From Aquabacterium sp. CECT 9606 (GTDB taxonomy: Bacteria > Pseudomonadota > Gammaproteobacteria > Burkholderiales > Burkholderiaceae_C): a stretch of 32,000 bases of DNA. The notes below the pieces were generated by a model that was not told the DNA's origin, made no database searches, and saw only the letters and a program-made list of their open reading frames with translations. This document shows positions 9,981 to 32,000 of the stretch, in pieces. Both the position numbers and the translations under genes were made by a program. The stretch spans positions 513,830-545,829 of the forward strand of contig NZ_CAKKNB010000004.1 of NCBI RefSeq assembly GCF_918741295.1. Direction: 5' to 3'. The number at the start of each line of letters is the position of its first letter. The stretch's first letter is position 1.

Positions 9981-10070
9981 GGAAGTGTGGCCGAGTGGTT
10001 TAAGGCTCTAGTCTTGAAAACTAGCGTAGGGGCGACCTTACCGTGAGTTCGAATCTCACCGCTTCCGCCA
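9981..10070 (+). tRNA. tRNA-Ser, anticodon TGA (UGA), with long variable arm and encoded CCA
   Basis: GGAAGTG acceptor stem pairs with CGCTTCC (one G-U). D arm is GCC/GGC, anticodon stem CTAGT/ACTAG with loop CTTGAAA, T arm GTGAG-TTCGAAT-CTCAC, then discriminator G and CCA. The long extra arm is typical of a class II tRNA. Confidence 0.9.
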
Positions 10071-17628: not shown

Positions 17629-18669
17629 CTAGCAGTTGCGGCGACGTGTAGCCCAACCCAAGCCAACCAACCCCATGCTGAGCATCATCCACGTCGATGC
17701 CTCCGGTACGGAACTAGCAAAATGCACCAGTTGGTTGGCGCTTCCGTCGAATGCCCAAAAATCGTTGCTGGTGCGCGAGAAGGCAAAGGCTGAAAAGACT
17801 CCGCCTAAACTGCCGATCAACGCTCCGGTTTCCTGGTTGTAGTAATTGCTGGCACTGAATGCATAGAGGGAATTGGCGCCAAGAATTTGCTCCGGAAATG
17901 TACGAAGCAAGGCATGCACGTCCAGTGGATCGAACTGTAGGGCACCGTAGTATACGTAGGCGTCATTGGATGAAAGCAATGCGCCGTTGCCCGCACCTGG
18001 AACATAGGCAGAGCCGTAGGTGCCTGATCCTTCCTGAGGGGTGAGGGTGTTGCCGGTGAGCTTGAATGCGCTCAACTCGGGGGAGCTGATGCCTGAACTG
18101 CCGTGGATCACACGGCTGTGCGTGGCGTCGTATTGAATGTTGCCGCTATACACGCTCCATGAGACGGTGTTGCCTACATTGTCGATCGCTCCGCCGGATC
18201 CCCATTGCTTGACACCAAAGTTGATCCATTGGTCAGTGGACTGTAAAATGAAGCGCTGATCATCCACAGTCTCAATGCGGCCTGCAACGCCATTGGTTGT
18301 TTGCGTCGCCCATGTGTTAGTGGCAAGATCCAAGCGATGCACATAGTGCTGACCAAGCGGTTCGCTATAGCCAATGTGTTCCCCAGCATAGTCAGCGGCG
18401 TATAGCACCAGCCCGCCAGGTGACAGCGACATGTCTGTGAAGCGGGCATTGGCCATTTCCGTCGATACGATGTTATGCGACGTTAGGTCTATGACCTTGA
18501 TAGCACTAGCGGAGTTGCGAACTACCAATTTGTTGGCATTGCTTGAGTAAGCCAACTGGCTGACACCGCCTGGCGCCGCAAAGGCTTCCAGCTTGGTCAA
18601 CTGCGCTGAAGCAGTGAAGGATCCGAACGACAATGCGGTGGCTATCGAGGCGGTGATCAACTTGGCCAT
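17629..18669 (-). CDS. Secreted repeat protein with C-terminal PEP-CTERM sorting signal
   Basis: Trimmed to the ATG at 18667-18669, which has an AAGGA RBS. Signal peptide MAKLITASIATALSFGSFTASA. The C-terminus VPEASTWMMLSMGLVGLGWATRRRNC has the P-E-x motif, a TM span and an Arg cluster. Confidence 0.75.
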   Translation of the reverse strand: MAKLITASIATALSFGSFTASAQLTKLEAFAAPGGVSQLAYSSNANKLVVRNSASAIKVIDLTSHNIVSTEMANARFTDMSLSPGGLVLYAADYAGEHIGYSEPLGQHYVHRLDLATNTWATQTTNGVAGRIETVDDQRFILQSTDQWINFGVKQWGSGGAIDNVGNTVSWSVYSGNIQYDATHSRVIHGSSGISSPELSAFKLTGNTLTPQEGSGTYGSAYVPGAGNGALLSSNDAYVYYGALQFDPLDVHALLRTFPEQILGANSLYAFSASNYYNQETGALIGSLGGVFSAFAFSRTSNDFWAFDGSANQLVHFASSVPEASTWMMLSMGLVGLGWATRRRNC

Positions 18670-18863
18670 GAGGTGTCCTTGTAATACAGGAGGCCAATGC
18701 AAACTATGGACATACTGTCCGCCTCCCAATGGTTGTGTTTTTTCGGTTGAATTGAGGGTTCAATCGACTGCTTGTAAATATACGCGATGTGAGCCTCGAA
18801 GCTGCCCCCTCATGTAAGGGTGGCGTCGTCAAACTGAATTTCTCTACGAAGTCATGCCTAGAA

Positions 18864-18933
18864 GCCTAACGCCAGAGTTAACAGGCGGCTGCCAGCGAAG
18901 CTGGAAGACGTCCTGTTGAACGACCAGTTAGGC
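18864..18933 (-). repeat. attC site 3 (70-bp family)
   Basis: GCCTAAC GCCAGA GTTAAC ...CCAGCGAAGCTGG... GTTGAAC GACCA GTTAGGC. Confidence 0.85.
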
Positions 18934-18980
18934 TGGTGAAAGATGCTGAGCTAGTTGATTGACTCATGCAGCTATTGCTC

Positions 18981-19589
18981 TCATCTAGGTGCGACGGGAA
19001 CAGGAATAAATATGTCGTACCTGTACCGATAGTCGCCACCAAGGCCATCGATTTTTGCGCCGTTTGTGATTGCTAACGCCAAAGGTGTGCGCTCTAGAAA
19101 CGGGAATCGTTTTTTGATGATTGGAAGGTCTCTATTGGACTTGTCCCTAAGAGATACGTTCTCCCAGTCTGGAGACCAATTGAAGGAACCCAAATATATA
19201 GCCTTGCCTGCTTCTACCGAAAATGGAATTCCGATGGGCATGGATGAGTTGGCTGTACGCGCACCTTGGCGAACTTGCCAGGACTTGATTACGTATTTTC
19301 CGGTGGGCAACTCGACAGCAAAGGTGTCACCTTTTGCTTGGAGATCCTCGTCAGTATTTTTTACAAATGGGTACCAGTCACCACTTCCAGCCTGGAGAAA
19401 GTAAGTCTTATCGCCGTTCTCTGGAGTGACGAGGACACGATAGAGCCCCAACCCACTTTCATAGGTGATCGAACCTATCACTACGCCGACGACCTTCTTG
19501 TCGTCAAACTTGTAATCTGACGGAACGTTAACACAGGCCGACAAAACAGCAATTACTACTGGGGCGATGAAGAATCGAAGCAATCGCAT
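18981..19589 (-). CDS. Lipoprotein, unknown function
   Basis: Lipobox in MRLLRFFIAPVVIAVLSAC. Confidence 0.7.
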   Translation of the reverse strand: MRLLRFFIAPVVIAVLSACVNVPSDYKFDDKKVVGVVIGSITYESGLGLYRVLVTPENGDKTYFLQAGSGDWYPFVKNTDEDLQAKGDTFAVELPTGKYVIKSWQVRQGARTANSSMPIGIPFSVEAGKAIYLGSFNWSPDWENVSLRDKSNRDLPIIKKRFPFLERTPLALAITNGAKIDGLGGDYRYRYDIFIPVPVAPR

Positions 19590-19609
19590 GATGATGTGTG
19601 TTTGAGTGG

Positions 19610-19617
19610 GCCTAGCG
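19610..19617 (-). repeat. attC site 4, R' end only (GCCTAGCG); the rest was lost with the IS remnant
   Basis: Same junction as at 22498-22505, followed immediately by the IS left end AATGAAAGGGACTTCCCCGTCCCGAAC. Confidence 0.55.
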
Positions 19618-19830
19618 AATGAAAGGGACTTCCCCGTCCCGAACTATCCGCCGGGTATTGGCGGCAAAGGTCTTGAAGGACCAAGATGGGAAGTGCAACG
19701 TTTCCATCGACGGTTCATTCGGAAGGGAAAGTCATGAGCATTATTGCCATCGGCCTGGATTTGGCCAAGAACGTTTTTGCAATGCACGGCATTGATGAGG
19801 CGGGCAAAACGTTGCTGATCAAGCCGGCAG
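19618..19830 (+). mobile_element. Truncated remnant (left end plus first ~31 codons) of an IS110/IS1111-family element
   Basis: AATGAAAGGGACTTCCCCGTCCCGAACTA... matches the left end of the full copy at 22506. MSIIAIGLDLAKNVFAMHGIDEAGKTLLIKP parallels MAILFVGIDLAKSVFALHGVDEHGKAVLVAP. Homology stops about 10 nt before the stop codon of the next cassette ORF. Confidence 0.75.
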
Positions 19831-19838
19831 CCACGTGC

Positions 19839-20330
19839 TCATTTGCTTGCTACTTTCTCGGTTACAGGCTGGTGGCTGTTTGCATCCTCAATCCAGACGC
19901 TTGAGGACTCCTTCGACAAAGTACCGACGACCATGTAATTGCCATTCGGCTCAGGCGTGAAGTCAACAGTTCCTTCTACTTCATGGAACGTCCCAACAGC
20001 TCGGCTGGCAAGCTCGTGTATGGGCGCTCCTGTGGCATGACTGCCGCGAATTTTCACTTTCATGGGAACTGCTGGAACTTGCCTTTTCGTCAAGCTTAAG
20101 TAAAGGATGGGGCCTTGGTTTTGACTTGCTATGCGGCTTGTCTGAAAGCTGCTTCGGATGTTGTGGCCGTCAATTTCTGTAAGAGCAAATATTTGCGCTT
20201 TGGTTGAGTCCTCTGACCGGCCACTGTCAGTGACGGTGGCGATCGGCCCCGTATAGTTTTCAGGAACAGGTTTGTAAACTGCGCAGCCAGAGATTGAGAG
20301 AACAAAAAGTGAAAGTATGAGTTTCTTCAT
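19839..20330 (-). CDS. Lipoprotein, unknown function
   Basis: Lipobox in MKKLILSLFVLSISGC. Confidence 0.7.
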   Translation of the reverse strand: MKKLILSLFVLSISGCAVYKPVPENYTGPIATVTDSGRSEDSTKAQIFALTEIDGHNIRSSFQTSRIASQNQGPILYLSLTKRQVPAVPMKVKIRGSHATGAPIHELASRAVGTFHEVEGTVDFTPEPNGNYMVVGTLSKESSSVWIEDANSHQPVTEKVASK

Positions 20331-20355
20331 AAGATTTATGGTGGTTGAAGGTGAT

Positions 20356-20449
20356 GCCTAACGCCCGCGGTAAGCCGCGCCGGAGCGCGAAGCACGGAGG
20401 GAACCAATAAGCGGAGCTTGTTGGTGTCGGCTTGACCAAACGGTTAGGC
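20356..20449 (-). repeat. attC site 5 (94-bp family)
   Basis: GCCTAAC GCCCGC GGTAAGCC ... GGCTTGACC AAACG GTTAGGC. Confidence 0.85.
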
Positions 20450-20491
20450 CGCTGGGCGAAGGCACCATATGCATTTTGACTTTGTGGGCGT

Positions 20492-21058
20492 TCAATTTTC
20501 TTGCCGCACCAAACGTACTGGCAATTTCGTGCGCTTTGAAATATCGCCACGCGCCTGTCCTGAGCCCATGTTTACGGCCCAGCCATGCAAGAACGCCATA
20601 CGGTTCACGCTTTGCTCCGTTATGCCTCGCCCAATGTTCCCATAGTCGTACTGGTTAATAGGCCTAGTATCAATGTTGGCAGAGACTGTCCAATGCCAAC
20701 CTAGTGGTGCTGCGGGGAACACCGGCTCTTCTTTCTCGGTGTTCACCAGGCGCTGAAGTTCCTTGACACGCGGGACACGCCAACTCAAGCCTTCGGTCTC
20801 TGCCCGTGCGCGGGCAAGCGAAAGAGCCTCAGCGTGACTAGCGAGTGTCGGCTTGCCCGTGCAGGTCTTGCCGTCCCACTGCATGCCCTCTACGCACCGG
20901 GACCAAATCAGTTTGCTTCGCAGATCTGAGACGTGAGTGCCATTCTTCGATACAACAAGGCTCGGCGACTCAGCCTGACCACTAGCTTTAGTTGAGTGCA
21001 TCGCTATTGCACACACTAAATATGTTCCGATTCGTAGGTATCGCATAGGCACTTTCAT
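20492..21058 (-). CDS. Secreted protein resembling the DUF1566 (Lcl C-terminal) family
   Basis: Trimmed to the ATG at 21056-21058 (MKVPMRYLRIGTYLVCAIAMHSTKASG signal). The segment WRVPRVKELQRLV resembles the W-R-L-P-x-x-x-E-L signature I associate with DUF1566. The start is uncertain (alternative ATG at 21044-21046). Confidence 0.55.
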   Translation of the reverse strand: MKVPMRYLRIGTYLVCAIAMHSTKASGQAESPSLVVSKNGTHVSDLRSKLIWSRCVEGMQWDGKTCTGKPTLASHAEALSLARARAETEGLSWRVPRVKELQRLVNTEKEEPVFPAAPLGWHWTVSANIDTRPINQYDYGNIGRGITEQSVNRMAFLHGWAVNMGSGQARGDISKRTKLPVRLVRQEN

Positions 21059-21076
21059 TTCTGAGTCCGCCAAGAG

Positions 21077-21127
21077 GCCTAACGCCAAAGTTGATGGGCA
21101 ACGATGCGAAGTATTTTGCGGTTAGGC
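21077..21127 (-). repeat. attC site 6 (short, 51 bp)
   Basis: GCCTAACGCCAAAGTTGATGGGCAACGATGCGAAGTATTTTGCGGTTAGGC. Probably internally deleted. Confidence 0.55.
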
Positions 21128-21225
21128 TGGTGCTATGTGCAAATTCGGTTGAGTTGCGCATTGTGTAGTACTAGCTGTTCTAGCCGGGGATGCTTACAAG
21201 CCTACAGTGGTTTACTTGCATGCCG

Positions 21226-21834
21226 TCAACGCCCAGGTACGTAAACATTGATGGTTTGTGGTGCTGGTCCTTCGCACCTCGATGCGGGTATCAACTGGAG
21301 ATCCAGTGGTACAAGCTCGTCCGTTAGATTGGGATAGCTTTCTTTAATATGTTTTCGCGCCGATTCAATGTCCTGGGTAACGCGCGGTCGAAGCACGTTT
21401 CCTACTTGCACGAACTCAATATCTGCGGCATAGGCGATCTTGCCAGAGGGGACCTCAAATGAAAGGAGCTTGGGGTTATTGCAGAACGAAAATTGCGGAC
21501 CCCATAGCGTGCCATTGATAGACATCTGAACCGATGTAAGTGCCAAGGCTTGACCTGTCTTCACTTTGGCGGTGACATAGCCATTGCTAGGAACATCATG
21601 AATCTTGGCGAAGGTGTCTAGAAGAACATTCTGCTTGAACTTGCCATCGACGATTTCGCCAGGGAACAAAGATAGCCTAGCGTTGTCTGGCTTTACGCCG
21701 AAAACGATAATGGATTCGTTCGGTTCTGGTCTTGTGGTGGTGCGACTGATGTTTGTGCTGCATGCTGGAAGCAGCAGCGCTGAAAGAGTGGTAACGATTG
21801 CGTAGCCGGAAAGCTTTCTAAATGTAGGTCGCAT
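21226..21834 (-). CDS. Lipoprotein, unknown function
   Basis: Lipobox in MRPTFRKLSGYAIVTTLSALLLPAC. Confidence 0.7.
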   Translation of the reverse strand: MRPTFRKLSGYAIVTTLSALLLPACSTNISRTTTRPEPNESIIVFGVKPDNARLSLFPGEIVDGKFKQNVLLDTFAKIHDVPSNGYVTAKVKTGQALALTSVQMSINGTLWGPQFSFCNNPKLLSFEVPSGKIAYAADIEFVQVGNVLRPRVTQDIESARKHIKESYPNLTDELVPLDLQLIPASRCEGPAPQTINVYVPGR

Positions 21835-21897
21835 AAGGTCGTATTGTTCAGAATTTGGACAAGTGTGAATGTCTTCTTGGTGCTAGTAATTATTGAA

Positions 21898-21991
21898 GCC
21901 TAACGCCACAGGTAAGCTGCACCGGAGTGCGCAGCACGGAGGGAACCTACAAGCGAAGCTTGTAGGTGTCGGCCTAATCGAAAAATTAGGT
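21898..21991 (-). repeat. attC site 7 (94-bp family, one core degenerate: ATTAGGT)
   Basis: Aligns along its full length with the other 94-bp sites. Confidence 0.7.
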
Positions 21992-22029
21992 TGGGGGCAA
22001 ATGATTGATAGGTTGAGGTACGCATAGCT

Positions 22030-22479
22030 TCAAGCGAGGATTCTTCGCAGAGGGAACATGGTTGATTGGGAGAAACCGTGCTTTGAATAAAAGCGCTGCG
22101 CTGATGTGTTCTCATGATCCGTGAGTAGCGTAATGCGTTTGACGCCACTTCGGCGAGCGAGGTCTATGGCGTGATTCAGTAAGTCAGATCCAATGCCTGA
22201 GCCACGGGCGCCAGGGGATACGACCATGTCCTCGAGAAGCGCAACACGCTCGCCAATTGCGGTAGAGATGGTAAACAGCAGGTTGACCATTGCCAAGATG
22301 GAATTGCCTTCGCGAGCAACCAAGATGACGCCAAGATCCGGGTTGCTAATGATGCTTGATAAGCCTTTGGATTGAGCTGCCGTGTCTGGCTTGAACTCAG
22401 TTTCTTGGGTGAACAGAATCGATAGCAACTCACTGAGTGCAGGGATGTCCGATGCAGACGCACGTTCAAAGATTGGCAC
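22030..22479 (-). CDS. GNAT-family N-acetyltransferase
   Basis: Trimmed to the GTG (complement of 22477-22479), which has an AAGGA RBS 5 nt upstream. Acetyl-CoA motif VVSPGARGSGIGSDLLNHAI and a C-terminal FYSKHGF. The track ORF's extra N-terminus reads through the attC remnant into the IS. Confidence 0.8.
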   Translation of the reverse strand: MPIFERASASDIPALSELLSILFTQETEFKPDTAAQSKGLSSIISNPDLGVILVAREGNSILAMVNLLFTISTAIGERVALLEDMVVSPGARGSGIGSDLLNHAIDLARRSGVKRITLLTDHENTSAQRFYSKHGFSQSTMFPLRRILA

Positions 22480-22497
22480 GGTGTTCCTTTTCGAGAA

Positions 22498-22505
22498 GCC
22501 TAACG
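22498..22505 (-). repeat. attC site 8, R' end (GCCTAACG), separated from the rest by the IS
   Basis: Joining 22498-22505 to 23956-24014 restores a 67-bp site nearly identical to attC site 19 (30855-30921). Confidence 0.8.
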
Positions 22506-22619
22506 AATGAAAGGGACTTCCCCGTCCCGAACTAGCCGCGTATTGCGGCGACCGGTCATGAAAGACCAAGATGGGAAGTGCGAATAACTCATCTTTGTTT
22601 CATTCGGAAGGAGAAGTCC

Positions 22620-23637
22620 ATGGCTATTTTGTTCGTTGGAATCGATCTCGCCAAGTCCGTGTTTGCGCTGCATGGTGTGGATGAGCATGGCAAGGCGGTG
22701 TTGGTGGCGCCCAAAGTGGCGCGCGACAAGTTGGTGGGCATGATCGCGGCGCTGCCGCCGTGCATCGTTGGCATGGAGGCGTGCTCGGGCGCCCACCACT
22801 GGGCGAGGCTGTTCGCCGGCTTGGGCCACACGGTGCGGCTGATGGCGCCGAAGTTCGTCGCGCCGTACCGCATGAGCGGCAGGCGAGGCAAGAACGATGC
22901 GGCCGACGCCGCGGCCATCTGCGAGGCCGTGCAGCGGCCCAACATGCGGTTCGTGCCAGTCAAAAGTCTTGAGCAACAGGGCAAGCTCAGCGTGCACCGG
23001 ATGCGGCAAGGCTCTCATCGAGCAACGCACGGCCACCATCAACCGCATCCGGGGGCTGTTGGCCGAGTTTGGGATCGTCCTGCCGCTGAAGGCGGCGACG
23101 GTGAGGCGCGAGGCCGGCGCCTGCCTGGAGGAACTGCCTGGCTGGGCGAACCTGGCCATTGGCGACGCACTGAGCGAGTTGCATCGGCTCGATGAACGCA
23201 TCGAACAATATGACCGGCACATTGCCCAGATGGCCCGCGAAGACGAGCGGGCGCGTCAGCTCATGAAGCTGTGCGGGATCGGCGAGACCACGGCATCGGC
23301 GATCGTGGCGATGGTGGGCAACGGGCATGAGTTCAGCTGCGGCAGGCAATTCGCGGCTTGGCTGGGATTGACGCCGGGGCAGTTCAGTTCGGGTGGCAAG
23401 AGTCGGCTGGGTCGCATCACCAAGGCCGGGGACAGCTACCTGCGCAGCCTGTTGGTACTTGGTGCCAGGGCCGTGCTCAACGCCGCGGCTGGCAAGGCCG
23501 ACCGCATCAGCACGTGGGCCAAGGCGCTGGCCGAGCGAAGAGGCTACTGGCGCGCGGTGATCGCCATTGCCGCCAAGAACGTCCGGATGGCCTGGGCCGT
23601 GCTGCGACGAGGCGAGGCCTTCGAGATGCCGAACTAG
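22620..23637 (+). pseudogene. IS110-family (DEDD) transposase, disrupted by a frameshift near 23005-23012
   Basis: The N-terminal half lies in the frame of ORF 22578..23195 (MAILFVGIDLAKSVFALHGVDEHGK...VKSLEQQGKLSVHRMRQG). The C-terminal half lies in the frame of ORF 22897..23637 (LIEQRTATINRIRGLLAEFGIV...GRITKAGDSYLRSLLV...). The junction CAAGGCTCTCATCGAG needs one base removed (or two added) to read ...RQG(x)LIEQR. Confidence 0.75.
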
Positions 23638-23692
23638 ACAGAGATACTTCCGCCGCGTGACGGCAAGCGTTGATGACAACAGGTTGGACCTG

Positions 23693-23762
23693 CGCGGGCA
23701 GTAACCGTTTAACTCGTGGGCAGCGCGTGTGCGCTTGCCGGCTAACAAATGGGTCGCCCGCG
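23693..23762 (+). ncRNA. Candidate guide loop of a bridge/seek RNA in the IS 3' non-coding region
   Basis: Outer stem CGCGGGC (23693-23699) pairs with GCCCGCG (23756-23762). Inner hairpin is GGCAGCGC-GTGT-GCGCT(T)GCC (23719-23739). These leave a 19-nt 5' strand (AGTAACCGTTTAACTCGTG) and a 16-nt 3' strand (GGCTAACAAATGGGTC) of a large internal loop. Both strands contain attC-like words. Confidence 0.35.
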
Positions 23763-23955
23763 TGCGTCTTGCATCAGGGTCTGCGGCACCTGAACTGCCG
23801 TGTTCATGACCGTTTGTAGTCTGGCCAGTCCGCACTTTGTTGTCGCTCCCTTTGCTCGCCTGATCTGCGTCGGCGTTGTGCATTGTTTGATGATGTTGGC
23901 TCGCTGCGCGAGCCTTGGGTCAGCTATTGTTTGACAGATGGAGAAGCCCTTGTAG

Positions 23956-24014
23956 CAAAAGTTAACGGGCGGCAATGCGAAGCATTGACGTCCCTGTTGA
24001 ACGATAAGTTAGGC
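23956..24014 (-). repeat. attC site 8, remainder
   Basis: CAAAAGTTAACGGGCGGCAATGCGAAGCATTGACGTCCCTGTTGAACGATAAGTTAGGC. Confidence 0.8.
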
Positions 24015-24084
24015 TGGTAGCCAGTGCCAGAAGTGTTGGCATGTTCAGGTTGATTTTCATTCTGAGTGTCTGCAAAAACTATAG

Positions 24085-24417
24085 CTAGCCTGGCCAGGTC
24101 CTGTGCCAGGTTAGGCCTCTTCTCGGCTTGGCAGAGCAATGGAGAAAGACCATTGCTGTGATTGATGCAAGCATGTAGCTTGAAAACAGAAATGGGTTCG
24201 TCTCGATAGAGCCATACTTAAAGCATGTTGGCGTGGTGAGCCCTCTTGCAGGTGGCGATACCCTAGCGCATTCAGGCGTCTTTGTGCCAAAGCGCTGTAT
24301 AGCCACATCGTGAGGCACTGAACTTAGCCAACCCAGAGTGGTTGATCCAAAGAATGCGAGGGCCAGTACCGCCACGACTTGACCTGCAATCCAGAGTGTT
24401 CGTTGTAATGAGTGCAT
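24085..24417 (-). CDS. Small membrane protein, unknown function
   Basis: 110 aa with two hydrophobic spans (LWIAGQVVAVLALAFFGSTTLGWL; FLFSSYMLASITAMVFL). Confidence 0.5.
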   Translation of the reverse strand: MHSLQRTLWIAGQVVAVLALAFFGSTTLGWLSSVPHDVAIQRFGTKTPECARVSPPARGLTTPTCFKYGSIETNPFLFSSYMLASITAMVFLHCSAKPRRGLTWHRTWPG

Positions 24418-24432
24418 GTTGGATAGCTAAAA

Positions 24433-24502
24433 GCCTAACGCCCGAGTTAACAGGCGGATACCAGCGAAGCTGGTAGACGTCCTGTTGAACGACCAGTTAG
24501 GC
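24433..24502 (-). repeat. attC site 9 (70-bp family)
   Basis: Near-identical to sites 3 and 16. Confidence 0.85.
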
Positions 24503-24541
24503 CGCGGCACGAAGGCACAGCGTTGTAAGTGATATGTGAAC

Positions 24542-25234
24542 TCATGTTCCCACCCAGCCCCACTTCACGGGTAATGTTGAATCGACATCGCTTTCAAGCA
24601 ATACGCTGAAATCTTGCATGTCCACCGAAAGACCTTTGAGACCAGAGGCGCCACCTAAAAGGTGATGAGCTTCTTCTACCAAAGCAAGCATGAAATTCAT
24701 TGCTTCAACACACTTGGAAATGACTTCACCTTCGCCTAGTTCTTCTACTACCCAAGTTCTTTCAACACCTGCTTGTTCGCCAACCTGCTCATGTTTGCCG
24801 CCTAGAAATAATTTACCCACAAACTCTGCTGTGAGTTCTAGAAGCCTACTCGTCTCGGCAAACGGTTCGATGTCGGCATTCATTGATAGCTTCATTCTGC
24901 GCCCTCTGAATAGGCCGCAAGCCACTTTGCTTTTTGAAGTGAGCGAGCTTTGCTTAACCACTATATTGCGAGCTTCCACGAAGCGGCGCAGAGCTGGCAT
25001 GTTCCTCATTTCCTGTTGTTTTGTCTCGTACCAAGCCTTAAACCCATTCAATTCACTGGCTTCGCTTTGCAGCATAAAAGTGATATTTCGGAAAGACTGG
25101 ATGAATGCATTTAGGTTGTGAAGGAACGGCTGAGGCAGGTGGTAGTTGATCAAGCATTGAATCAGAAAATATCGAGCTTCAGCGCACCTCTCATGCGTCG
25201 ATGGAATGGGGCAATTTTCTTCAAATGGGGCCAT
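24542..25234 (-). CDS. Cytoplasmic protein of unknown function, 230 aa
   Basis: The clean ORF fills the cassette and starts 10 nt from the attC core. I recognise no motif. Confidence 0.6.
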   Translation of the reverse strand: MAPFEENCPIPSTHERCAEARYFLIQCLINYHLPQPFLHNLNAFIQSFRNITFMLQSEASELNGFKAWYETKQQEMRNMPALRRFVEARNIVVKQSSLTSKSKVACGLFRGRRMKLSMNADIEPFAETSRLLELTAEFVGKLFLGGKHEQVGEQAGVERTWVVEELGEGEVISKCVEAMNFMLALVEEAHHLLGGASGLKGLSVDMQDFSVLLESDVDSTLPVKWGWVGT

Positions 25235-25244
25235 GATGTTAGAG

Positions 25245-25338
25245 GCCTAACGCCACAGGTAAGCCGCACCGGAGCGCGAAGCGCGCAGGGAACCCACAAG
25301 TGAAACTTGTGGGTGTCGGCTTGACCGACACGTTAGGC
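25245..25338 (-). repeat. attC site 10 (94-bp family)
   Basis: Near-identical to sites 12 and 14. Confidence 0.85.
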
Positions 25339-25889
25339 TGGGGCGAGAAGCAACCGCCTGTGAGAAAAAGCAAGCCTTGCTTTGCTGGCAGATGTTTGAC
25401 CTTGGCATGCCAAAACTCCCTTGGATTGATTGCAATTCTGCCTGATGCCAAAGCACCTGGCCAACCGGCGAATACTCGCAGACCGCCGACAGGCGGGCCG
25501 GTTCACTAAAACTTGTGGCCTGCTGCCTGCCAAGTTCGCCGCAGAGCTGGCAAACGCCAGGCAGTGATGGCCAAAGGCCATGACTGCGGGATGCCAAGTG
25601 CTGTGGCTTGCCACGGCATCACAGTGCACTGGCCGCCGAAGGACGGGCAGCCACAAGGCGATGGCGTATGGCACTTTGGCGCCGCACGGTGGTGAGCAGG
25701 CTGCCAAAGGACAGACAGCCAGATGAAAACTTGCCCAGCCACCAAGTCGTGACCCGCGAAGCCTGTTGATCTGTGCCTAGAAATGCGCGCAACGCTTGAG
25801 TACAAAAGGAAAGCAGCGCTGGCCACGACTAAACGTTGAAAGTATCAATGGCCAGACTTCGCCACATTGCTGATTGAAGGCAACCAAAA
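25339..25889. other. ORF-less cassette X1 (candidate structured RNA)
   Basis: About 90% identical to X3 and shares a ~110-nt core with X2. Only low-complexity Cys/His/Arg/Trp-rich frames are present. Confidence 0.5.
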
Positions 25890-25975
25890 GCCTAACGCCT
25901 AAGTTAACGGGCGCCCGCGTGGCGACGGCGAAGCGATGCAGGGTATCAGCGTCCCTGTTGAACGCCAAGTTAGGC
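25890..25975 (-). repeat. attC site 11 (86-bp family)
   Basis: GCCTAAC GCCTAA GTTAACGGG ... CCCTGTTGAAC GCCAA GTTAGGC. Confidence 0.8.
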
Positions 25976-26449
25976 TGGGGCGAGAAGGACCAGCGGATGA
26001 TCCGCAACGAGCAGTGCCTTGCTGACTAGCATTTGACCTGTGCACGCCAAAACTCCCTTTGTGTGACTGGATGGAATTGTGCCTGACGGGCGTAGAACTG
26101 TGAACCAGCGGCGCGGATTTATGCTCGTTGAATCATCGATGGCTTTGAAATGCGCATGAGAACCGGTGCGGGCCGAGATGATGCGCTGACTGCCGAAGGA
26201 CAGAAAGCCAGCCGCCGATGGCGTGTGGCACTTTGGCGCCGCACGATGGTGAGCAGGCTGCCGAAGGGCAGACAGCCAGATGGAGACTTGCTCCGCTGCC
26301 CGGCTGCGAACTGCTTCGCTTGTTAGCGCCGGACCTGGCCAGAATGCGCAATGCATGAGAGGCAAAGAAAGCAGCGCCGAAAGACGAGCAAGCGATTGAA
26401 GCTTCATGGCCCAAGACCTTGCCAGGAAGAAAAGGCAAGAGAACCGAAA
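25976..26449. other. ORF-less cassette X2 (diverged relative of X1/X3)
   Basis: Shares the core 26192-26290 with X1/X3, including both 18-nt direct repeats. Confidence 0.5.
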
Positions 26450-26543
26450 GCCTAACGCCACAGGTAAGCCGCACCGGAGCGCGAAGCGCGCAGGGAACCC
26501 ACAAGTGAAGCTTGTGGGTGTCGGCTTGACCGACACGTTAGGC
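26450..26543 (-). repeat. attC site 12 (94-bp family)
   Basis: As for site 10. Confidence 0.85.
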
Positions 26544-27099
26544 TGGGGCGAGAAGGAACAGCTGCTGAGGACAAGCCGACCTTGCTTTGCTGATAGATGT
26601 TTGACCTTGCCACGCCTGGGCCCCCTTGGCTTGAATTACAGAGATTCTGCCTGATGCCCGTGCGCCTAGCCAACCGGCGAATACTCGCAGACCGCCGACA
26701 GGCGGGCCGGTTCACTAAAACTTGTGGCCTGCTGCTTGCAAAGCCCGCCGCAAAGCTTGAAAAGCGCCAGGCAGTGATGGCCTTTGGTCATGACTGCGGG
26801 ATGCCATGTGCGGTGGCTTGCCACGGCACCACAGTGCACTGGCCGCCTCAGGACGGACAGCCACCAGGCGATGGCGTATGGCACTTTGGTGCTGCACGGT
26901 GGTGAGCAGGCTGCCGAAGGACAGACAGCCAGATTGAAACTTGCCAAGCCACCAAGTCGTGACCTGCGAAGCCTGTTGATCTGTGCCTAGAAATGCGCGC
27001 AACGCTTGAGTACAAAAAGAAAGCAGCGCTGGCCACGACTAAACGGTGAAAGAATCAATGGTCAGACTTCGCCACATTGCTGATTGAAGGCAGCCAAAA
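26544..27099. other. ORF-less cassette X3 (candidate structured RNA)
   Basis: See X1. Confidence 0.5.
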
Positions 27100-27193
27100 G
27101 CCTAACGCCCGCGGTAAGCCGCGCCGGAGTGCGAAGCACGGAGGGCACCCACAAGCGGAGCTTGTGGGCGTCGGCTTGACCAACCTGTTAGGC
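27100..27193 (-). repeat. attC site 13 (94-bp family)
   Basis: As for site 5. Confidence 0.85.
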
Positions 27194-27275
27194 TGGGGAG
27201 CGAAGGCAGGGTAGAGCAAGTTCACTCCTGATGCGTTAGGGTCGAGTGTTCACAAAAGTCGGCCAAGCGCCCAGC

Positions 27276-27863
27276 CTACTGGGCAGTGGTCTTGGCACGG
27301 CGACGGGCGACAAGAAAAATACCGAATATGAACGGCAACCCAACAGTGACTACGCTGATGCCAGCGATCGAAAGCGACATGCCCAATGACTCAAGGCGAT
27401 GGGTGCGGTGCCATTCGTTGCCTGGCAAAGACCAGATGAACAAAGAAAGGGCAGCCCAGACGGCACCGATGGAAACCGCCATGGTGCTGTACTGGAGGCA
27501 ATTCTTGCGGACTAACCAAGCCGATGCGGGAACCGCCAGAAGACCCAGGATTGGCAGCGCGATAGTCAGTAACAAAATCGAGAAATACAGCGACCAACTC
27601 GGGACAATTGTCCATCTCTGAGACTCAACGAGGCCTCCGGCTGCTACTCGCGAGGTGAACTCAATATAGGACCAAGTAAAAGTAGCTAGGACGAGACCAA
27701 GTCCCGCAAATGAATAGCCAGCGGCGAGCGGAGCGAATCCCGCAGGCCTGAACCGTCGGCCGAGCACCAGCCGCCAAATTGCGAACGGCGCTGCAATAGC
27801 AAACGCGATAGCGATGAGCCCGGCGGGGCGTGTCATCCAGTAAACGAGCCAGTCGGGAGCCAT
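27276..27863 (-). CDS. Polytopic membrane protein, unknown function
   Basis: 195 aa with about 6 hydrophobic spans. The start lies 8 nt from the attC core. Confidence 0.65.
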   Translation of the reverse strand: MAPDWLVYWMTRPAGLIAIAFAIAAPFAIWRLVLGRRFRPAGFAPLAAGYSFAGLGLVLATFTWSYIEFTSRVAAGGLVESQRWTIVPSWSLYFSILLLTIALPILGLLAVPASAWLVRKNCLQYSTMAVSIGAVWAALSLFIWSLPGNEWHRTHRLESLGMSLSIAGISVVTVGLPFIFGIFLVARRRAKTTAQ

Positions 27864-27870
27864 TTATGAA

Positions 27871-27964
27871 GCCTAACGCCACAGGTAAGCCGCACCGGAG
27901 CGCGAAGCGCGCAGGGAACCCACAAGTGAAACTTGTGGGTGTCGGCTTGACCGAAAAGTTAGGC
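27871..27964 (-). repeat. attC site 14 (94-bp family)
   Basis: As for site 10. Confidence 0.85.
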
Positions 27965-27990
27965 TGGTGACAGGTGCGCTGAAGGAAGAA

Positions 27991-28542
27991 CTATGCATTG
28001 CGGTGCCCATTAGTGCGGTCGTAGATGAGGCGAGCTACCAGGAGAGTGACACCGCCCAGTAGGCAGGGTAACCATACCCAAAGAAGCTCTGACACGAGCA
28101 CTTCGACGCCCTTCGGCCCGAATACGCGGCGAAGACTCAGTGGTGAGGCTTCAATGACTTGCCATGGAAGAAAAAAGCGTTCATTTGAAGCAGGCCACCA
28201 TAGGGCTACGCCGTGCCCTCCGTTTGTGAGCATGTCGAGGACACCGTGAGACGCCGCTGAAAAAGCAACGAACACGAACGCCAGGCCTCGGGTTGCACGT
28301 AAATGAGGCGCCGCCAGGGTAGCGATAAGCCCCATAAGCACAGCAAGAGCGAGAGAGTGCGATGCGCCGCGATGGCCGAAGGAGTCAGCGTAAGGGATGC
28401 CGAAGCGAAAGGCCAAAACGTCTAGGTCTGGCAGAACGGATACAAGGAGACCGACTGTGAGCAGGCGAGGAGAAACGGCCTGCTTACCTAAACCCAGGCG
28501 GAATGCAATGGGCGCAGCTATATGGGAGAAAACAGTTGGCAT
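27991..28542 (-). CDS. Membrane-bound metal-dependent hydrolase, YdjM/DUF457-like
   Basis: Trimmed to the ATG at 28540-28542 (MPTVFSHIAAPIAF...). Contains LPDLD, GHRGASHSL and SHGVLDMLT His/Asp motifs in a 4-5 TM protein, as I recall for this family. Confidence 0.6.
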   Translation of the reverse strand: MPTVFSHIAAPIAFRLGLGKQAVSPRLLTVGLLVSVLPDLDVLAFRFGIPYADSFGHRGASHSLALAVLMGLIATLAAPHLRATRGLAFVFVAFSAASHGVLDMLTNGGHGVALWWPASNERFFLPWQVIEASPLSLRRVFGPKGVEVLVSELLWVWLPCLLGGVTLLVARLIYDRTNGHRNA

Positions 28543-28551
28543 GGTGGGAAA

Positions 28552-28645
28552 GCCTAACGCCCGCGGTAAGCCGCGCCGGAGTGCGAAGCACGGAGGGTAC
28601 CTGCAAGCGAAGCTTGTGGGCGTCGGCTTGACCAACCAGTTAGGC
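28552..28645 (-). repeat. attC site 15 (94-bp family)
   Basis: As for site 5. Confidence 0.85.
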
Positions 28646-28710
28646 TACGGCACGAAGGCACGATGTTGACCTTGCCAATTGATAACTGGTTGGTTTTCAT
28701 TACTGGTTTT

Positions 28711-29199
28711 TTAAGTAGAGCCGGTCTTTTCAACGTGGCTTGCCGTGGCTTGAGCGAAAAAATTGCGGGCTTTTAAGCTAAATCCATATGCATAGAACCA
28801 ATACAAAATTGCTAGCAACTGCAATGCGCCCCCCAGAAGTTCGCCAAGCTCGCCCGTTGCAGGATCGCTGCACTTGAAGAATGGCTCAGATTTCGATTTG
28901 TTTAAAAATTGTATGTTGAATATAAATGCGTACAGTAGCGCAATGAAAAGCAAGCCGAGCCATCTTGTTATTGGTTCTGGCTTTGCTTTGAATAGTTTTA
29001 CTAGCGTGAATGCTAATGCCGCTAGTGCGAGCCATTGGCTCAAATTGATGAGAAGGATCGGAATGCCATTGTTGGCCCAAAACTGTATGAGCCCGGCAGT
29101 GGTCCTTACTGCGCCCACAGTGAGCAAACAGGTAATGAGTGCCCCCATTAGCTGGAAAACAATGACTGCCTTGGGTCGCTGGGCGTTCTCTTGCTGCAT
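28711..29199 (-). CDS. Polytopic membrane protein, unknown function
   Basis: 162 aa with 4 hydrophobic spans. Confidence 0.6.
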   Translation of the reverse strand: MQQENAQRPKAVIVFQLMGALITCLLTVGAVRTTAGLIQFWANNGIPILLINLSQWLALAALAFTLVKLFKAKPEPITRWLGLLFIALLYAFIFNIQFLNKSKSEPFFKCSDPATGELGELLGGALQLLAILYWFYAYGFSLKARNFFAQATASHVEKTGST

Positions 29200-29245
29200 T
29201 GTGTTGCGTTCGAATTGTCAATGTGGTGCTGCGTAAGCTAGAGAA

Positions 29246-29315
29246 GCCTAACGTCCGCGTTAACGGGCGGCTGCCAGCGAAGCTGGTAGACGTCCTGTTG
29301 AACAACCAGTTAGGC
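29246..29315 (-). repeat. attC site 16 (70-bp family)
   Basis: As for site 3. Confidence 0.85.
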
Positions 29316-29360
29316 CGCGGCGCGAAGGCACGATGTTGCAGTTCAAAGAGGTGCCATGCA

Positions 29361-29747
29361 TTAGCTTGAACTCCGAGAGCGGTAGGCCACAAGGTAACTG
29401 CAATAGTAGGCGGGCGCAAGGAAAGCTACGACGACGATTGCCACCACTAACCAAATTGCATGCGCCATGTTGAAGTCTTGAGGGATGGTGGCGTCCATTG
29501 CTAACCCTACCGCAAGGTCAATGCAACTTAGCCAAAAGATTGCAGGCCAATACTTGATAAGTCCCTGCGGGTGCCATCTCAGCGCGACGATGAGGACGGC
29601 AATGCACAGTGACAGCGCTGACAGAGATGTAAGGATTGCCAGGATGCCTGGGTAATGCAGATCAGAGCTATCAAAGGCCGCGTATTGGCCTATGACGCCG
29701 ACCGCTGCTGCGTATACCGTAGAGATGATCTGAACAACGAGCTTCAA
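29361..29747 (-). CDS. Polytopic membrane protein, unknown function (start uncertain)
   Basis: The track ORF starts inside attC site 17. The first possible start outside it is the TTG at 29745-29747. Confidence 0.45.
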   Translation of the reverse strand: MKLVVQIISTVYAAAVGVIGQYAAFDSSDLHYPGILAILTSLSALSLCIAVLIVALRWHPQGLIKYWPAIFWLSCIDLAVGLAMDATIPQDFNMAHAIWLVVAIVVVAFLAPAYYCSYLVAYRSRSSS

Positions 29748-29758
29748 GATTCTATGAG

Positions 29759-29843
29759 GCCTAACGCCCGAGGTAAGGGGCGCCCGCATGGCCTTGCCGA
29801 AGCGAGCAATGATGTAGGCGTCCCATTGACCGAAAAGTTAGGC
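29759..29843 (-). repeat. attC site 17 (85 bp)
   Basis: GCCTAAC GCCCGA GGTAAGGGG ... CCCATTGACC GAAAA GTTAGGC. Confidence 0.75.
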
Positions 29844-29995
29844 TGGGGCGAGAAGGAACAGCTGATGAGAACAAGCGGAGTTTGCCTTGATGGTGAATGA
29901 TGCATGGACTGTGCATACTCCAACTGTGGATGATTGGCTGTTGCATGAGGATGCGCGCTAGATTGTTTGGTGTGACGATGTCGCTAGTCGCCATT

Positions 29996-30286
29996 TCAGG
30001 TTTTACGCTGACAGGCTATAAAATCTTTGACGATTTCGCTGTCTCCGTCGACCACTTCCCCAGTTTCTAGTTTTAGCTTTATTGCAGACACCGGGCATAT
30101 TGCTGCAGCCCAAAAAAGACCCTCACTTTCGTTGCGTAGTAATTGAATATCAACGTCAGGCTTGATATGAACCGATACAGCGCCCTCGCGCTCCTCGAAT
30201 ACGCTAGGCACTTCATGAACGCAAAAGTAGTGAGCCAAACATACATCGGCGTCAACCCAGACTTTTATAACGGTGTGCTGTTTCAT
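29996..30286 (-). CDS. Small ferredoxin-like protein (three-Cys cluster pattern)
   Basis: Trimmed to the ATG at 30284-30286. 96 aa with VDADVCLAHYFCVHEVPSVF...AAAICPVSAI, i.e. C-x5-C...CP, resembling single-cluster ferredoxins. Confidence 0.5.
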   Translation of the reverse strand: MKQHTVIKVWVDADVCLAHYFCVHEVPSVFEEREGAVSVHIKPDVDIQLLRNESEGLFWAAAICPVSAIKLKLETGEVVDGDSEIVKDFIACQRKT

Positions 30287-30289
30287 AGA

Positions 30290-30383
30290 GCCTAACGCTA
30301 CAGGTAAGCCGCACCGGAGTGCGAAGCACACAGGGAACCTACAAGCGAAGCTTGCAGGTGTCGGCTTGACCGAAAAGTTAGGC
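30290..30383 (-). repeat. attC site 18 (94-bp family)
   Basis: As for site 10. An orphan GTTAGGC core also occurs at 30422-30428. Confidence 0.85.
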
Positions 30384-30422
30384 TGGGGCGCGAAGGCACA
30401 GTGTTGCGCTTTTTAGTTGAAG

Positions 30423-30746
30423 TTAGGCTGGTGGCAAACGCGAATTCTTTTTCCGTTGCCATGTTGATCCAGCCATAAACCAAAAAACTGGAATTGCGAA
30501 GAATGATTGAAACCAGTAAGTCATGTTGCCGTCGCCTCGTGACTTGCATAGATGTAAGGCATCAATGCACAGTCCATGCAGGAGAACTTGGGCAACCGTG
30601 AGACCAACTCCGAGGCCAATGGATGCGAGGAAAGCAGCCCCCCAATATGATGTTTGATTTGATTTTGCAGCATTTGATCCAAGTACTTTCGCTACCACAA
30701 TGCCTATTAGAGGAACCACGGCTGCGATAAAGGGTGAGAGTTCCAT
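30423..30746 (-). CDS. Small membrane protein, unknown function
   Basis: 107 aa with 3 hydrophobic spans. Confidence 0.55.
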   Translation of the reverse strand: MELSPFIAAVVPLIGIVVAKVLGSNAAKSNQTSYWGAAFLASIGLGVGLTVAQVLLHGLCIDALHLCKSRGDGNMTYWFQSFFAIPVFWFMAGSTWQRKKNSRLPPA

Positions 30747-30854
30747 CGAAAGTCCTGGCCTTTTAGGGTTGAAGAAGACTGTATTAAAAGATGAAATCGG
30801 TATAAGTCTGGCTAAATTGAGTAGCTTCCAAAGCTTGGCTTAAAAGAGCCAAAA

Positions 30855-30921
30855 GCCTAACGCCTAAGTTAACGGGCGGCAATGCGGAGCATTGACGTCC
30901 CTGTTGAACGACAAGTTAGGC
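30855..30921 (-). repeat. attC site 19 (67 bp)
   Basis: Intact counterpart of the IS-interrupted site 8. Confidence 0.85.
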
Positions 30922-30926
30922 CTTTG

Positions 30927-31748
30927 CTATGCGCCATCAGGTGGCTTGTTGACAGGGATTCCTGATTTGATGGCAAGTTGTTCGATGGCTTCAGCGCATG
31001 CCAAGCCGAACCGCCAAAGGGTGAAGATGGTGCTGAATGTTTCATAGGGTGTTAGTGAGATAGCCTCACCGAGGTTAAAGACTCGTTCGTGCTGAACAAT
31101 GTGCATTTCGAGCATTGCCTCCTCGTTCAGGCCCTGGCCCGGCTCGGTAAGGATGAGCTGTGCGCCAGTTTCCAGCCCGCGTAGAACCACCTTGCTTGTG
31201 ACCCATTTTGCAACTAGACGATCGCCATCGTTGGTATCAAGCGCTGTGACTTTGCCTAGGCGATGCACAAGACAAGTTCTGACTTTGTTTAACGAGAGAA
31301 CATGCTCGGCAAAGCTTGGTTGAATGCCATATTTACTTTCAAGCTCAGTTAACTTTGCAGGAAAATGAAGCTTGTGATGTTTGTGTGGGGCGATCCTGGT
31401 GACGTTATTCCAGATCTCATCGCTGATGACTCCTTTGCCTACTATTTGGATTGCATTGCAGAAGGAAAGGCACCGCCCCAGGAATTGATCCGTAGCTTCA
31501 ATTGAGTCTCGCAAGAAACTGTTGTTGAGCCACTCCAGTGCCTTCTCGCGTGCCTCCTCATGCGGAAGCTCTGCTCCATGTGCCGGGCTAAAGTTGTGAA
31601 AGCCTTGCGGTTCAGCCTCTTCGGCTGTTACGCGTTGCGCTCCTGCTATGAGTAAGGTGACGATGTCCAGTTGATGCTGAATTGCTCTAAGGAAGTGGCC
31701 TCGTGAACTCACGAAGTCTAGGTGGATGACGGTCTTGGCTTCGCTCAT
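30927..31748 (-). CDS. Cytoplasmic protein of unknown function, 273 aa
   Basis: Trimmed to the ATG at 31746-31748 (MSEAKTVIHLDF...), 8 nt from the attC core. I recognise no motif. Confidence 0.6.
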   Translation of the reverse strand: MSEAKTVIHLDFVSSRGHFLRAIQHQLDIVTLLIAGAQRVTAEEAEPQGFHNFSPAHGAELPHEEAREKALEWLNNSFLRDSIEATDQFLGRCLSFCNAIQIVGKGVISDEIWNNVTRIAPHKHHKLHFPAKLTELESKYGIQPSFAEHVLSLNKVRTCLVHRLGKVTALDTNDGDRLVAKWVTSKVVLRGLETGAQLILTEPGQGLNEEAMLEMHIVQHERVFNLGEAISLTPYETFSTIFTLWRFGLACAEAIEQLAIKSGIPVNKPPDGA

Positions 31749-31756
31749 GTCTGAAG

Positions 31757-31850
31757 GCCTAACGCCCGCGGTAAGCCGCACCGGAGCGCGTAGCGCGGAG
31801 GGAACCAACAAGCGAAGCTTGTTGGTGTCGGCTTGACCAACCAGTTAGGC
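31757..31850 (-). repeat. attC site 20 (94-bp family)
   Basis: As for site 5. Confidence 0.85.
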
Positions 31851-31888
31851 CGGTACGCGAAGGCACAGCGTTGCCTTGGTATATGAAT

Positions 31889-32000
31889 TCATGCAATTTT
31901 TGATTCCATTGATTGAAGGAAATGATTCAGCCTTTCAGTCATGCGGTCGAGTTGCCTTTGCATTTCTTCCTCGACTTCGGATAGATCACCGATAAGCGAG
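31889..32000 (-). CDS. C-terminal 36 codons of the next cassette ORF (5' end beyond the window)
   Basis: My translation of the reverse strand is ...SLIGDLSEVEEEMQRQLDRMTERLNHFLQSMESKIA*, with the stop at complement of 31889-31891. Confidence 0.4.
   Translation of the reverse strand, partial: SLIGDLSEVEEEMQRQLDRMTERLNHFLQSMESKIA

Follow-up and report, generated by a model that had tools for sequence, protein, structure and literature searches.

Gene-less cassettes represent a sizeable, poorly understood share of chromosomal integrons, and to our knowledge promoter activity is the only function so far shown for them. The element considered here is a conserved core of about 150 nucleotides (nt), carried by three consecutive cassettes (X1, X2 and X3) of an integron in Aquabacterium sp. 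CECT 9606, and its nearest described kind are the promoter-bearing gene-less cassettes of Vibrionaceae superintegrons (PMC11014356) and of an oral metagenome (PMC6557892), which are likewise bounded by attC sites and devoid of a gene. Sense promoters in gene-less cassettes are known to switch on the cassettes downstream (PMC11014356), and the present family resembles such cassettes in its sense orientation within a chromosomal array and in a promoter-like site facing the next cassette. The known examples are nevertheless defined by their measured promoter activity, with no conserved structure described, whereas in the present family a 150-nt core with covarying hairpins and an invariant linker occurs in several copies per array, and the promoter is predicted only.

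The stretch of DNA analysed, referred to below as the window, comprises 32,000 nt of contig NZ_CAKKNB010000004.1 (positions 513,830 to 545,829). An original prediction made from its letters had pointed to three cassettes without open reading frames (ORFs), sharing a core bracketed by an 18-nt direct repeat, and had proposed a structured RNA, possibly antisense to the cassettes. The base-pairing is indeed real and accompanied by compensatory changes, but the strand that pairs is opposite to the one proposed. That the gene-less cassettes carry a structured RNA element on their sense strand has, in our judgement, about an even chance of being right. The core would most likely be a cargo of some 150 nt that acts as a single-stranded nucleic acid, namely RNA, on the cassette sense strand, and the element, a gene-less cassette family with a covariation-supported RNA core, is apparently undescribed. 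Any specific function assigned to it deserves much lower confidence than the RNA element itself.

A family of gene-less integron cassettes

The degenerate 18-mer on which the prediction was built (GCCDMAGGRCRGRMAGCC) occurs six times in the window, always on the plus strand (25635, 25703, 26192, 26260, 26845 and 26913), with an exact spacing of 68 nt within each pair, and is absent from 100 dinucleotide-preserving shuffles; a repeat search lengthened it to about 35 nt, with successive spacings of 68, 489, 68, 585 and 68. The reported identity of about 90% between X1 and X3 was recovered (60 substitutions and 5 indel columns over 650 aligned columns), as was the GC-richness of the region (G+C of 0.57-0.58 in X1, X2 and X3 against 0.537 for the whole array). 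The likeness of X2 had been described as limited to a core of about 110 nt; X2 is instead homologous over the whole cassette, although more distantly, and aligns with X1 and X3 over the first 30 nt or so, a 146-nt core and approximately the last 95 nt. X1, X2 and X3 are copies of one gene-less integron cassette family.

Positions 18864-32000 are occupied by an array of integron cassettes. It has at least 14 attC sites (GCCTAAC...GTTAGGC), where none is expected by chance, and these fall into three length classes (67-70, 85-86 and 94 nt). As in integron gene cassettes generally, the attC sites carry R'' (RYYYAAC) and R' (GTTRRRY) boxes in one orientation. The genes of the array, read from the real ORFs of the neighbouring cassettes, lie on the minus strand. 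The plus-strand 3' arm of each attC holds an extra G (GGCTT-G-AC against GTAAGCC), and this extrahelical G, following the published attC model, we take to mark the window plus strand as the attC bottom strand. Only when each cassette is given the attC at its low-coordinate end do X1 and X3 possess near-identical 94-nt attC sites (1 substitution). In L028, a metagenomic homologue, the element directly follows attI as first cassette, in sense orientation and divergent from the integron integrase, the latter being confirmed by NF011946 (476 bits against a cut-off of 435). Because of the neighbouring ORFs, the extra G of attC, the attC type shared by X1 and X3 and the layout of L028, the cassette sense strand is the window minus strand. 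The cassette limits given originally had to be shifted, since the array reads on the minus strand and attC sits at the low-coordinate end of each cassette. The integrase gene intI does not lie within the window, the array continues past its right end, and the integrase must therefore be encoded beyond position 32000.

Relatives were found by an exact core pattern scan of genome and metagenome collections together with a protein-word search. The scan matched Aquabacterium lacunae KMB7, an Aquabacterium metagenome-assembled genome (MAG), a Moraxellaceae-labelled MAG and six metagenome contigs. For the protein search five-frame translations of the core were aligned and run against a protein database, which returned 46 predicted 'hypothetical' proteins without Pfam domain, whose contigs gave 20 further loci. 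A covariance model, R1, was built from 35 distinct cores, and the search of related sequences with such a model, which had been advised together with the prediction, yielded 63 matches (48 distinct) in 29 loci covering 152 kb. Within every locus all R1 copies are on one strand, the window having exactly three, all minus, and the called neighbouring genes share the strand of the element wherever present. The copies cluster, with six in 5 kb in L016, six in 8 kb in A. lacunae (L002, contig NZ_SIXI01000010) and two at the start of L028. The attC classes differ among subfamilies (94 nt vs. 111-120 nt), and about 45 core columns are invariant across the subfamilies while the flanks in the same cassettes are barely alignable. 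Genes downstream of the element vary (Imm26-like, trypsin-like, unknown), which argues against a riboswitch serving one pathway. A distant blastn search of the plasmid collection with the core gave no match, and 10-mers complementary to the core, sought in the window and in eight loci, were confined to the opposite strand of the elements themselves and to scattered chance matches.

Hairpins, strand and coding potential of the core

Each 18-mer is, on the minus strand, a stem-loop of the form 5'-NNG-Y-C / C-U-K-C / G-G-C-N'N'-3', in which the apex (G-Y-C / C-U-K-C / G-G-C) is invariant, a conserved G-U pair adjoins the loop, and the loop reads CUUC, CUGC or CUUU. The two stem-loops of a core, hairpin 1 (HP1) and hairpin 2 (HP2), are separated by a linker that includes a mini-hairpin (GCGC-CAAA-GUGC). 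A further hairpin, HP3, is present in about half of the family; seven variants of its sequence were seen, and the copies of L006 and L028 show compensatory changes. When mutual information was computed in an unbiased scan of all column pairs, the top three pairs were the nested hairpin pairs 130:142, 58:69 and 129:143. Within HP1, 27 copies have U-A at pair 58:69 and 8 have A-U, and pair 60:67 is divided between U-G (19) and C-G (16). Within HP2, the counts are 26 C-G to 8 U-A at 129:143, 19 U-A to 14 C-G at 130:142 and 30 C-G to 3 U-A at 125:147, and 128:144 also exchanges. The named structure leaves 92-93% of cells paired, as compared to 28-54% when the partners are slid by 1-3 columns, and both sides of a pair have changed in 46-57 cells vs. 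about 16-19 in shuffles.

The register supported by comparison differs from the minimum-energy register of the single sequence. The supported structure is therefore not simply the easiest fold, and the mismatch argues against pairing as a by-product of composition. The hairpin registers obtained from single sequences (GGCUGUC/GGCAGCC) are contradicted by the compensatory changes. RNAalifold proposed long-range helices (19-21/146-148 and 27-30/104-107) as opposed to a local one (19-21/28-30), among which none can be chosen, as the long-range and local alternatives covary equally with column 20 in a signal traceable to one clade. A 5' attenuator composed of a mini-ORF and a terminator-like site (25826-25813) was also considered and discarded, its hairpin not being kept in other subfamilies. 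The mini-ORF itself (12-13 codons, about 25830-25868, minus strand) stands at the cassette start and reads MWRSLAIDTFNV plus stop in X1 and MLQKPLAIDASTV plus stop in relatives; it has homologues in L004, L008 and L009, the copies differing by an in-frame 3-nt indel; X2 and the L002 and L006 subfamilies either lack it or have a different one.

As regards the strand, the stems of HP1 and HP2 read on the minus strand contain 53 G-U cells against 1 A-C, and the position adjacent to the loop toggles between U-G and C-G (19 vs. 16 in HP1, 34 vs. 1 in HP2). The mini-hairpin shows 36 G-U cells against 1 A-C on the minus strand, and its three stem changes (G-U to A-U, and C-G to U-G twice) keep pairing on that strand only. 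This asymmetry between G-U and A-C indicates that the pairing strand is the window minus strand, i.e., the cassette sense strand, and the 53-to-1 ratio in HP1 and HP2 contradicts the antisense assignment. The latter had been derived from three C-to-T differences between X1 and X3, which do exist; two of them, however, fall in helices absent from other members of the family, and the third, located in the genuine hairpin HP3, is the single A-C case of that hairpin.

The fixed spacing of the two hairpins appears in a different light when the 68-70 nt starting at HP1 (unit 1) are compared with the following 68-70 nt (unit 2). The two units are alike at z = 10-12 in L015, L025 and L026 and at z = 4-6.6 in the window copies, where likeness is left only in the hairpin part, and across the family the hairpins are spaced by 68-70 nt. 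The element thus consists of two or three hairpin-and-linker units in tandem, and the 68-nt spacing is a relic of duplication. Both 70-nt units are about 80% identical throughout in L015 (837-1030), L025 (1298-1490) and L026 (229-421 and 756-949), a subfamily that retains a second copy of the GCGCCAAAGTGCC segment, and a third hairpin (GCGCGTCCTTCGGCGC) is found in two copies of the element (L006, 12430-12475; L015, 2819-2883). An attC origin of the repeat unit was rejected: its length is near that of the short attC class, yet there is no likeness, no comparison of the 68-70-nt unit with the window attC sites on both strands exceeding a z of 3, and the core has no GTTRRRY box.

The constraint at the nucleic-acid level that had been postulated for the repeat is borne out by 1-nt indels between subfamilies, located in the most conserved stretch of the core. 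No 3-base periodicity was seen across the core (per-phase column entropy of 0.64, 0.64 and 0.53). Several frames are open across it in most copies, with no consistent ORF spanning it, and open frames are expected at 57-65% G+C. The 46 ORFs found in the database cross the core in one or another of three frames, continue into attC and are all annotated as 'hypothetical'; eight ORFs of the window gave nothing significant against Pfam, the one listed match (E=0.11) being below the cut-off. The description of the cassettes as ORF-less holds for the cassette body, where no frame is conserved, but not for the 3' end, where a short ORF led by a ribosome-binding site (RBS) reads through attC. The element was not a recognised RNA class, as originally stated: Rfam 15 gave no match over the region at gathering score, with a best E of 2.8 in a permissive scan, and a gathering-score scan of seven homologous loci gave none either. 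The sole Rfam match in the window is a tRNA gene (9981-10067, plus strand).

The 3' module of the cassettes has features of its own. Every subfamily retains a promoter-like -35/-10, an RBS and a start codon near this end. An RBS and a start codon are present in 35 of the 36 distinct 3' ends examined, the start (ATG, GTG or TTG) lying 4-10 nt after an RBS of the GGGAG type and mostly 67, 70 or 73 nt before R'' (56 or 95 in L002-type copies, 97 in one). The short ORF, of about 50 codons, has a poorly conserved peptide, and in 27 cases its stop is exactly the TAG of R', where the following cassette joins. A position kept without conservation of the peptide suggests that the act of translation may be what matters, and published work ties translation to transcript stability, translation having been proposed to protect array transcripts. 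Upstream, 30 of 34 copies have a -10-like CA(N)AAT, and 25 of 34 have a -35-like hexamer at a further distance of 16-18 nt. Promoter prediction retained a single site over threshold, in X2. No RBS-led start at about 70 nt was found in other cassettes of the window, where the few in-frame ones lie 16-31 nt before R''. One cassette (30289..29844) with a ferredoxin-like ORF (29996-30331, minus strand) nonetheless bears after its stop codon a 3' module of about 95 nt (29844-29939, minus strand) homologous to that of the gene-less family, and the module is therefore common to unrelated cassettes.

Features of the cassettes X1, X2 and X3, with positions in the window
Feature	Position	Strand	Remarks
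Cassette X1	25251..25895	-	Limits: TT of R' (25895) and G of R' (25251); attC sites
attC of X1	25245-25338		attC search
Cassette X2	25896..26455	-	Own attC (86 nt) at 25890-25975
Cassette X3	26456..27105	-	Own attC (94 nt) at 26450-26543
Core of X1	25624..25769	-	Full-length match to covariance model R1, 152 bits
Core of X2	26181..26326	-	R1 match, 143 bits
Core of X3	26834..26979	-	R1 match, 152 bits
HP1 of X1	25701..25714	-	CUGUC-CUUU-GGCAG; within the 18-mer at 25703
HP2 of X1	25633..25646	-	CCGUC-CUUC-GGCGG; within the 18-mer at 25635; stem extends outward, about 10 bp
HP1 of X2	26258..26271	-	CUGCC-CUUC-GGCAG
HP2 of X2	26190..26203	-	CUGUC-CUUC-GGCAG
HP1 of X3	26911..26924	-	
HP2 of X3	26843..26856	-	CCGUC-CUGA-GGCGG
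Linker between hairpins	X1 25647..25700; X2 26204-26257; X3 26857-26910	-	Near-invariant, C-rich
HP3 of X1	25562..25586	-	CAGUCAUGGCC-UUU-GGCCAUCACUG; X3 copy at 26772-26796; X2 without HP3
Short ORF of X1	25247..25408	-	53 codons; ATG 70 nt before R''; stop is the TAG of R' (GTTAGGC)
RBS of X1 (GGGAG)	25416-25420	-	
-10-like site of X1 (CAGAAT)	25435-25440	-	
Short ORF of X2	25899..26045	-	48 codons; GTG start; stop 5 nt before R'
Promoter-like site of X2	26104..26076	-	TTCACA-17-CACAAT
Short ORF of X3	26452..26613	-	53 codons; GTG start; stop is the TAG of R'

Possible roles of the core and competing explanations

A structured RNA on the sense strand, combined with the 3' module, would turn the cassette into an expression-relay module of the array. 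The pair of similar hairpins, together with the invariant linker, might form a platform that binds either a host factor, which may be a dimer, or the machinery of transcription or translation; the bound platform would stabilise or regulate a transcript otherwise untranslated for about 450 nt, and the 3' module would launch ribosomes through attC into the next cassette. The analysis shows the anatomy of the sequence, the pairing and its strand, the orientation, the lack of a gene, the copy number and the kept positions of RBS and start codon; a transcript, promoter activity, a partner and an effect on the neighbouring cassettes are, in this scheme, what we infer. A bolder proposal sees in the core a functional RNA of a new class and the only cargo of its mobile cassette; we consider it unlikely, ranking it just after the DNA-level explanation discussed below. 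In its array-expression version such an RNA would act on RNA polymerase or on ribosomes and keep the distal parts of large arrays expressed, through processive antitermination or protection from Rho, as with the two-hairpin put of phage HK022, together with delivery of ribosomes through attC; in its ribozyme or ligand-sensing version the invariant 40-nt linker would be the active site.

Several observations weigh against a structured sense-strand RNA. The compensatory changes map to few clades and hence to few independent events, so that the shuffle control, in which the observed covariation score was reached by 0 of 500 shuffles, overstates significance. Covariation is confined to HP1, HP2 and HP3, and the invariance of the 40-nt linker means that its structure or contacts cannot be inferred. 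The folding energy over 191 nt is unremarkable (z = -0.74 on the minus strand, +0.04 on the plus). No partner protein, ligand or target was found, and the genes downstream of the element vary and thus show no gene association. The promoter-like hexamers are weak, the -10 scoring 4 of 6 and the -35 scoring 3-5 of 6, and if the 3' promoter is the main one the core would lie upstream, outside its transcript. For one and the same strand, moreover, sequence alone cannot separate a role as single-stranded DNA from a role as RNA.

This last point, also made in the literature for motifs of the two kinds, which are bioinformatically indistinguishable (PMC5737381), is part of the case for an element acting at the DNA level, either as single-stranded hairpins in replication or cassette recombination or as duplex regulator sites controlling the 3' promoter. 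Integron recombination itself works on folded single strands, an invariant 40-nt linker without covariation behaves like a protein-binding site, and two similar sites at fixed spacing upstream of a promoter-like site resemble an operator or enhancer layout. The covarying positions differ, however, between HP1 and HP2 (CUG/CAG vs. CCG/CGG) while remaining complementary, and are therefore not read by a shared protein; the toggling of T and C opposite an invariant G fits pairing rather than duplex recognition. The recombining (bottom) strand is here the plus strand, whereas the pairing asymmetry favours the minus, and the repeat unit has no similarity to attC. We regard an action at the DNA level as unlikely, albeit as the strongest of the rivals. 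The core might also belong to a selfish or decaying repeat without function, conserved only through recent spread or homogenisation, and the very high copy number within single arrays, the consecutive copies, the origin by tandem duplication and the ordinary folding energy would all suit this possibility. Recent spread does not easily account for diverged flanks around some 45 core columns that are invariant across subfamilies with different attC classes, nor for stem changes that are compensatory or preserve wobble pairs, and we find such a repeat doubtful, placing it behind both the DNA-level element and the new RNA class.

An antisense or trans-acting small RNA transcribed from the window plus strand would agree with the three X1/X3 C-to-T differences, which leave G-U pairs on that strand, one of them in the genuine HP3, and a gene-less cassette with an antisense promoter was among those tested by Blanco et al. 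(PMC11014356). Most copies would nevertheless have a plus-strand C-A mismatch beside the loop (53 minus-strand G-U against 1 A-C), two of the three plus-strand helices are absent from other family members, and a promoter search of the plus strand found no promoter-like site. In one version this RNA would sequester CsrA/RsmA via GAAGGA motifs, and the plus strand does have AAGGA in both repeats; GGA, however, is replaced by GGG in 16 of 35 HP1 copies, an exchange that is neutral as U-G/C-G but would destroy the CsrA site. A CsrA/RsmA sponge, which would have several GGA motifs in hairpin loops of the transcribed strand, was rejected for this reason, because GGA occurs on the plus strand only, at most twice per element, and because the pairing asymmetry favours the minus strand. 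Altogether a plus-strand RNA seems improbable to us, more so than a selfish repeat. Least credible of all, and in our opinion very improbable, is a protein-coding gene across the core, whether for a small Cys/His-rich protein or as the remnant of a known gene. Gene callers do predict ORFs of 146-262 amino acids, and several frames are open across the core in most copies, as expected at 57-65% G+C; but the called ORFs lie in three frames and run into attC, 1-nt indels occur in the most conserved stretch without any 3-base periodicity, and there was no significant Pfam match, the database hits being likewise without precomputed Pfam domains.

The surrounding array and comparison with known systems

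Some further observations concern the array and its relatives. At 18864 the array adjoins an ORF for a PEP-CTERM-motif protein (17629-18729, minus strand). Inside it, 3983 nt (20450-24432) contain no clean attC but one degenerate candidate (21077-21154), and several minus-strand ORFs, one with an Lcl C-terminal domain (20492-21088); this segment may represent fused or decayed cassettes, or an insertion. Most cassettes share a motif just before R'' (minus GTGCCTTCGCGCCCCA, plus YGGGGCGMGAAGGCAC) of about 12-16 nt on the high-coordinate side of the R' boxes, for example at 25339-25352 and 29316-29330, so that attC conservation in this host seems to reach past the canonical boxes. In L003 (JAUSND010000023.1), a contig assigned by binning to Moraxellaceae, the element is present in a near-identical copy whose attC is of the same 94-nt type; either the contig is mis-binned or the cassette was transferred horizontally, all other named relatives being Aquabacterium.

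Among known RNA systems, the guanidine-II (mini-ykkC) riboswitch has two similar small GC-rich hairpins in tandem, as does the present element, but was rejected because the ACGR loops are absent, the linker is long and invariant, and there is no consistent downstream transporter gene. In the antitoxin RNAs of type III systems (ToxI), 2-3 copies of a structured RNA unit follow one another as direct repeats. Tandem units are present here too, but no endoribonuclease toxin gene is adjacent and the downstream cassettes are unrelated, which does not fit a ToxIN-like system; in comparison with ToxI, moreover, the present unit, at 68-70 nt, has about double the length, and the repeats of one element have diverged from each other. 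A CRISPR array or mini-array is not compatible with a 'spacer' that is the most conserved part and with paired repeats that differ within the element. A sigma-54 promoter (TGGCAC-N5-TTGC) requires a GG and a GC element exactly 10 nt apart, but the plus-strand TGGCACTTTGGCGCC has its GC one base too close and lacks TTGC, and identity of the core with attC was dismissed, as there is no likeness to the R/L-box palindrome and no GTTRRRY box.

Closer parallels are found within integrons. ORF-11 and ORF-17 in attI1 and small ORFs in attC help translation across recombination sites, as cited in PMC11511950. The short ORF of the present family is comparable in that it is led by an RBS, encodes a non-conserved peptide, crosses a recombination site and ends at the cassette junction; unlike ORF-11 and ORF-17 it starts about 70 nt upstream of attC in a gene-less cassette and ends at the TAG of R'. 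The DUF1874 motif (Weinberg et al., 2017, PMC5737381) is likewise conserved and structured, recurs in successive intergenic regions arranged as in an integron, and could equally be RNA or single-stranded DNA, but is suspected to be an unusual attC between ORFs, whereas the present element lies inside cassettes that have an ordinary attC. With 48 distinct sequences, a working covariance model and compensatory changes, the family is a clean candidate RNA family, and a cultured host with six copies, A. lacunae KMB7, makes experiments feasible. If the proposed reading is true, the RNA module together with the RBS and short ORF through attC offers a testable model for the expression of distal cassettes in large arrays, and the family would add a conserved, structured and multi-copy RNA module to the gene-less cassettes described so far.

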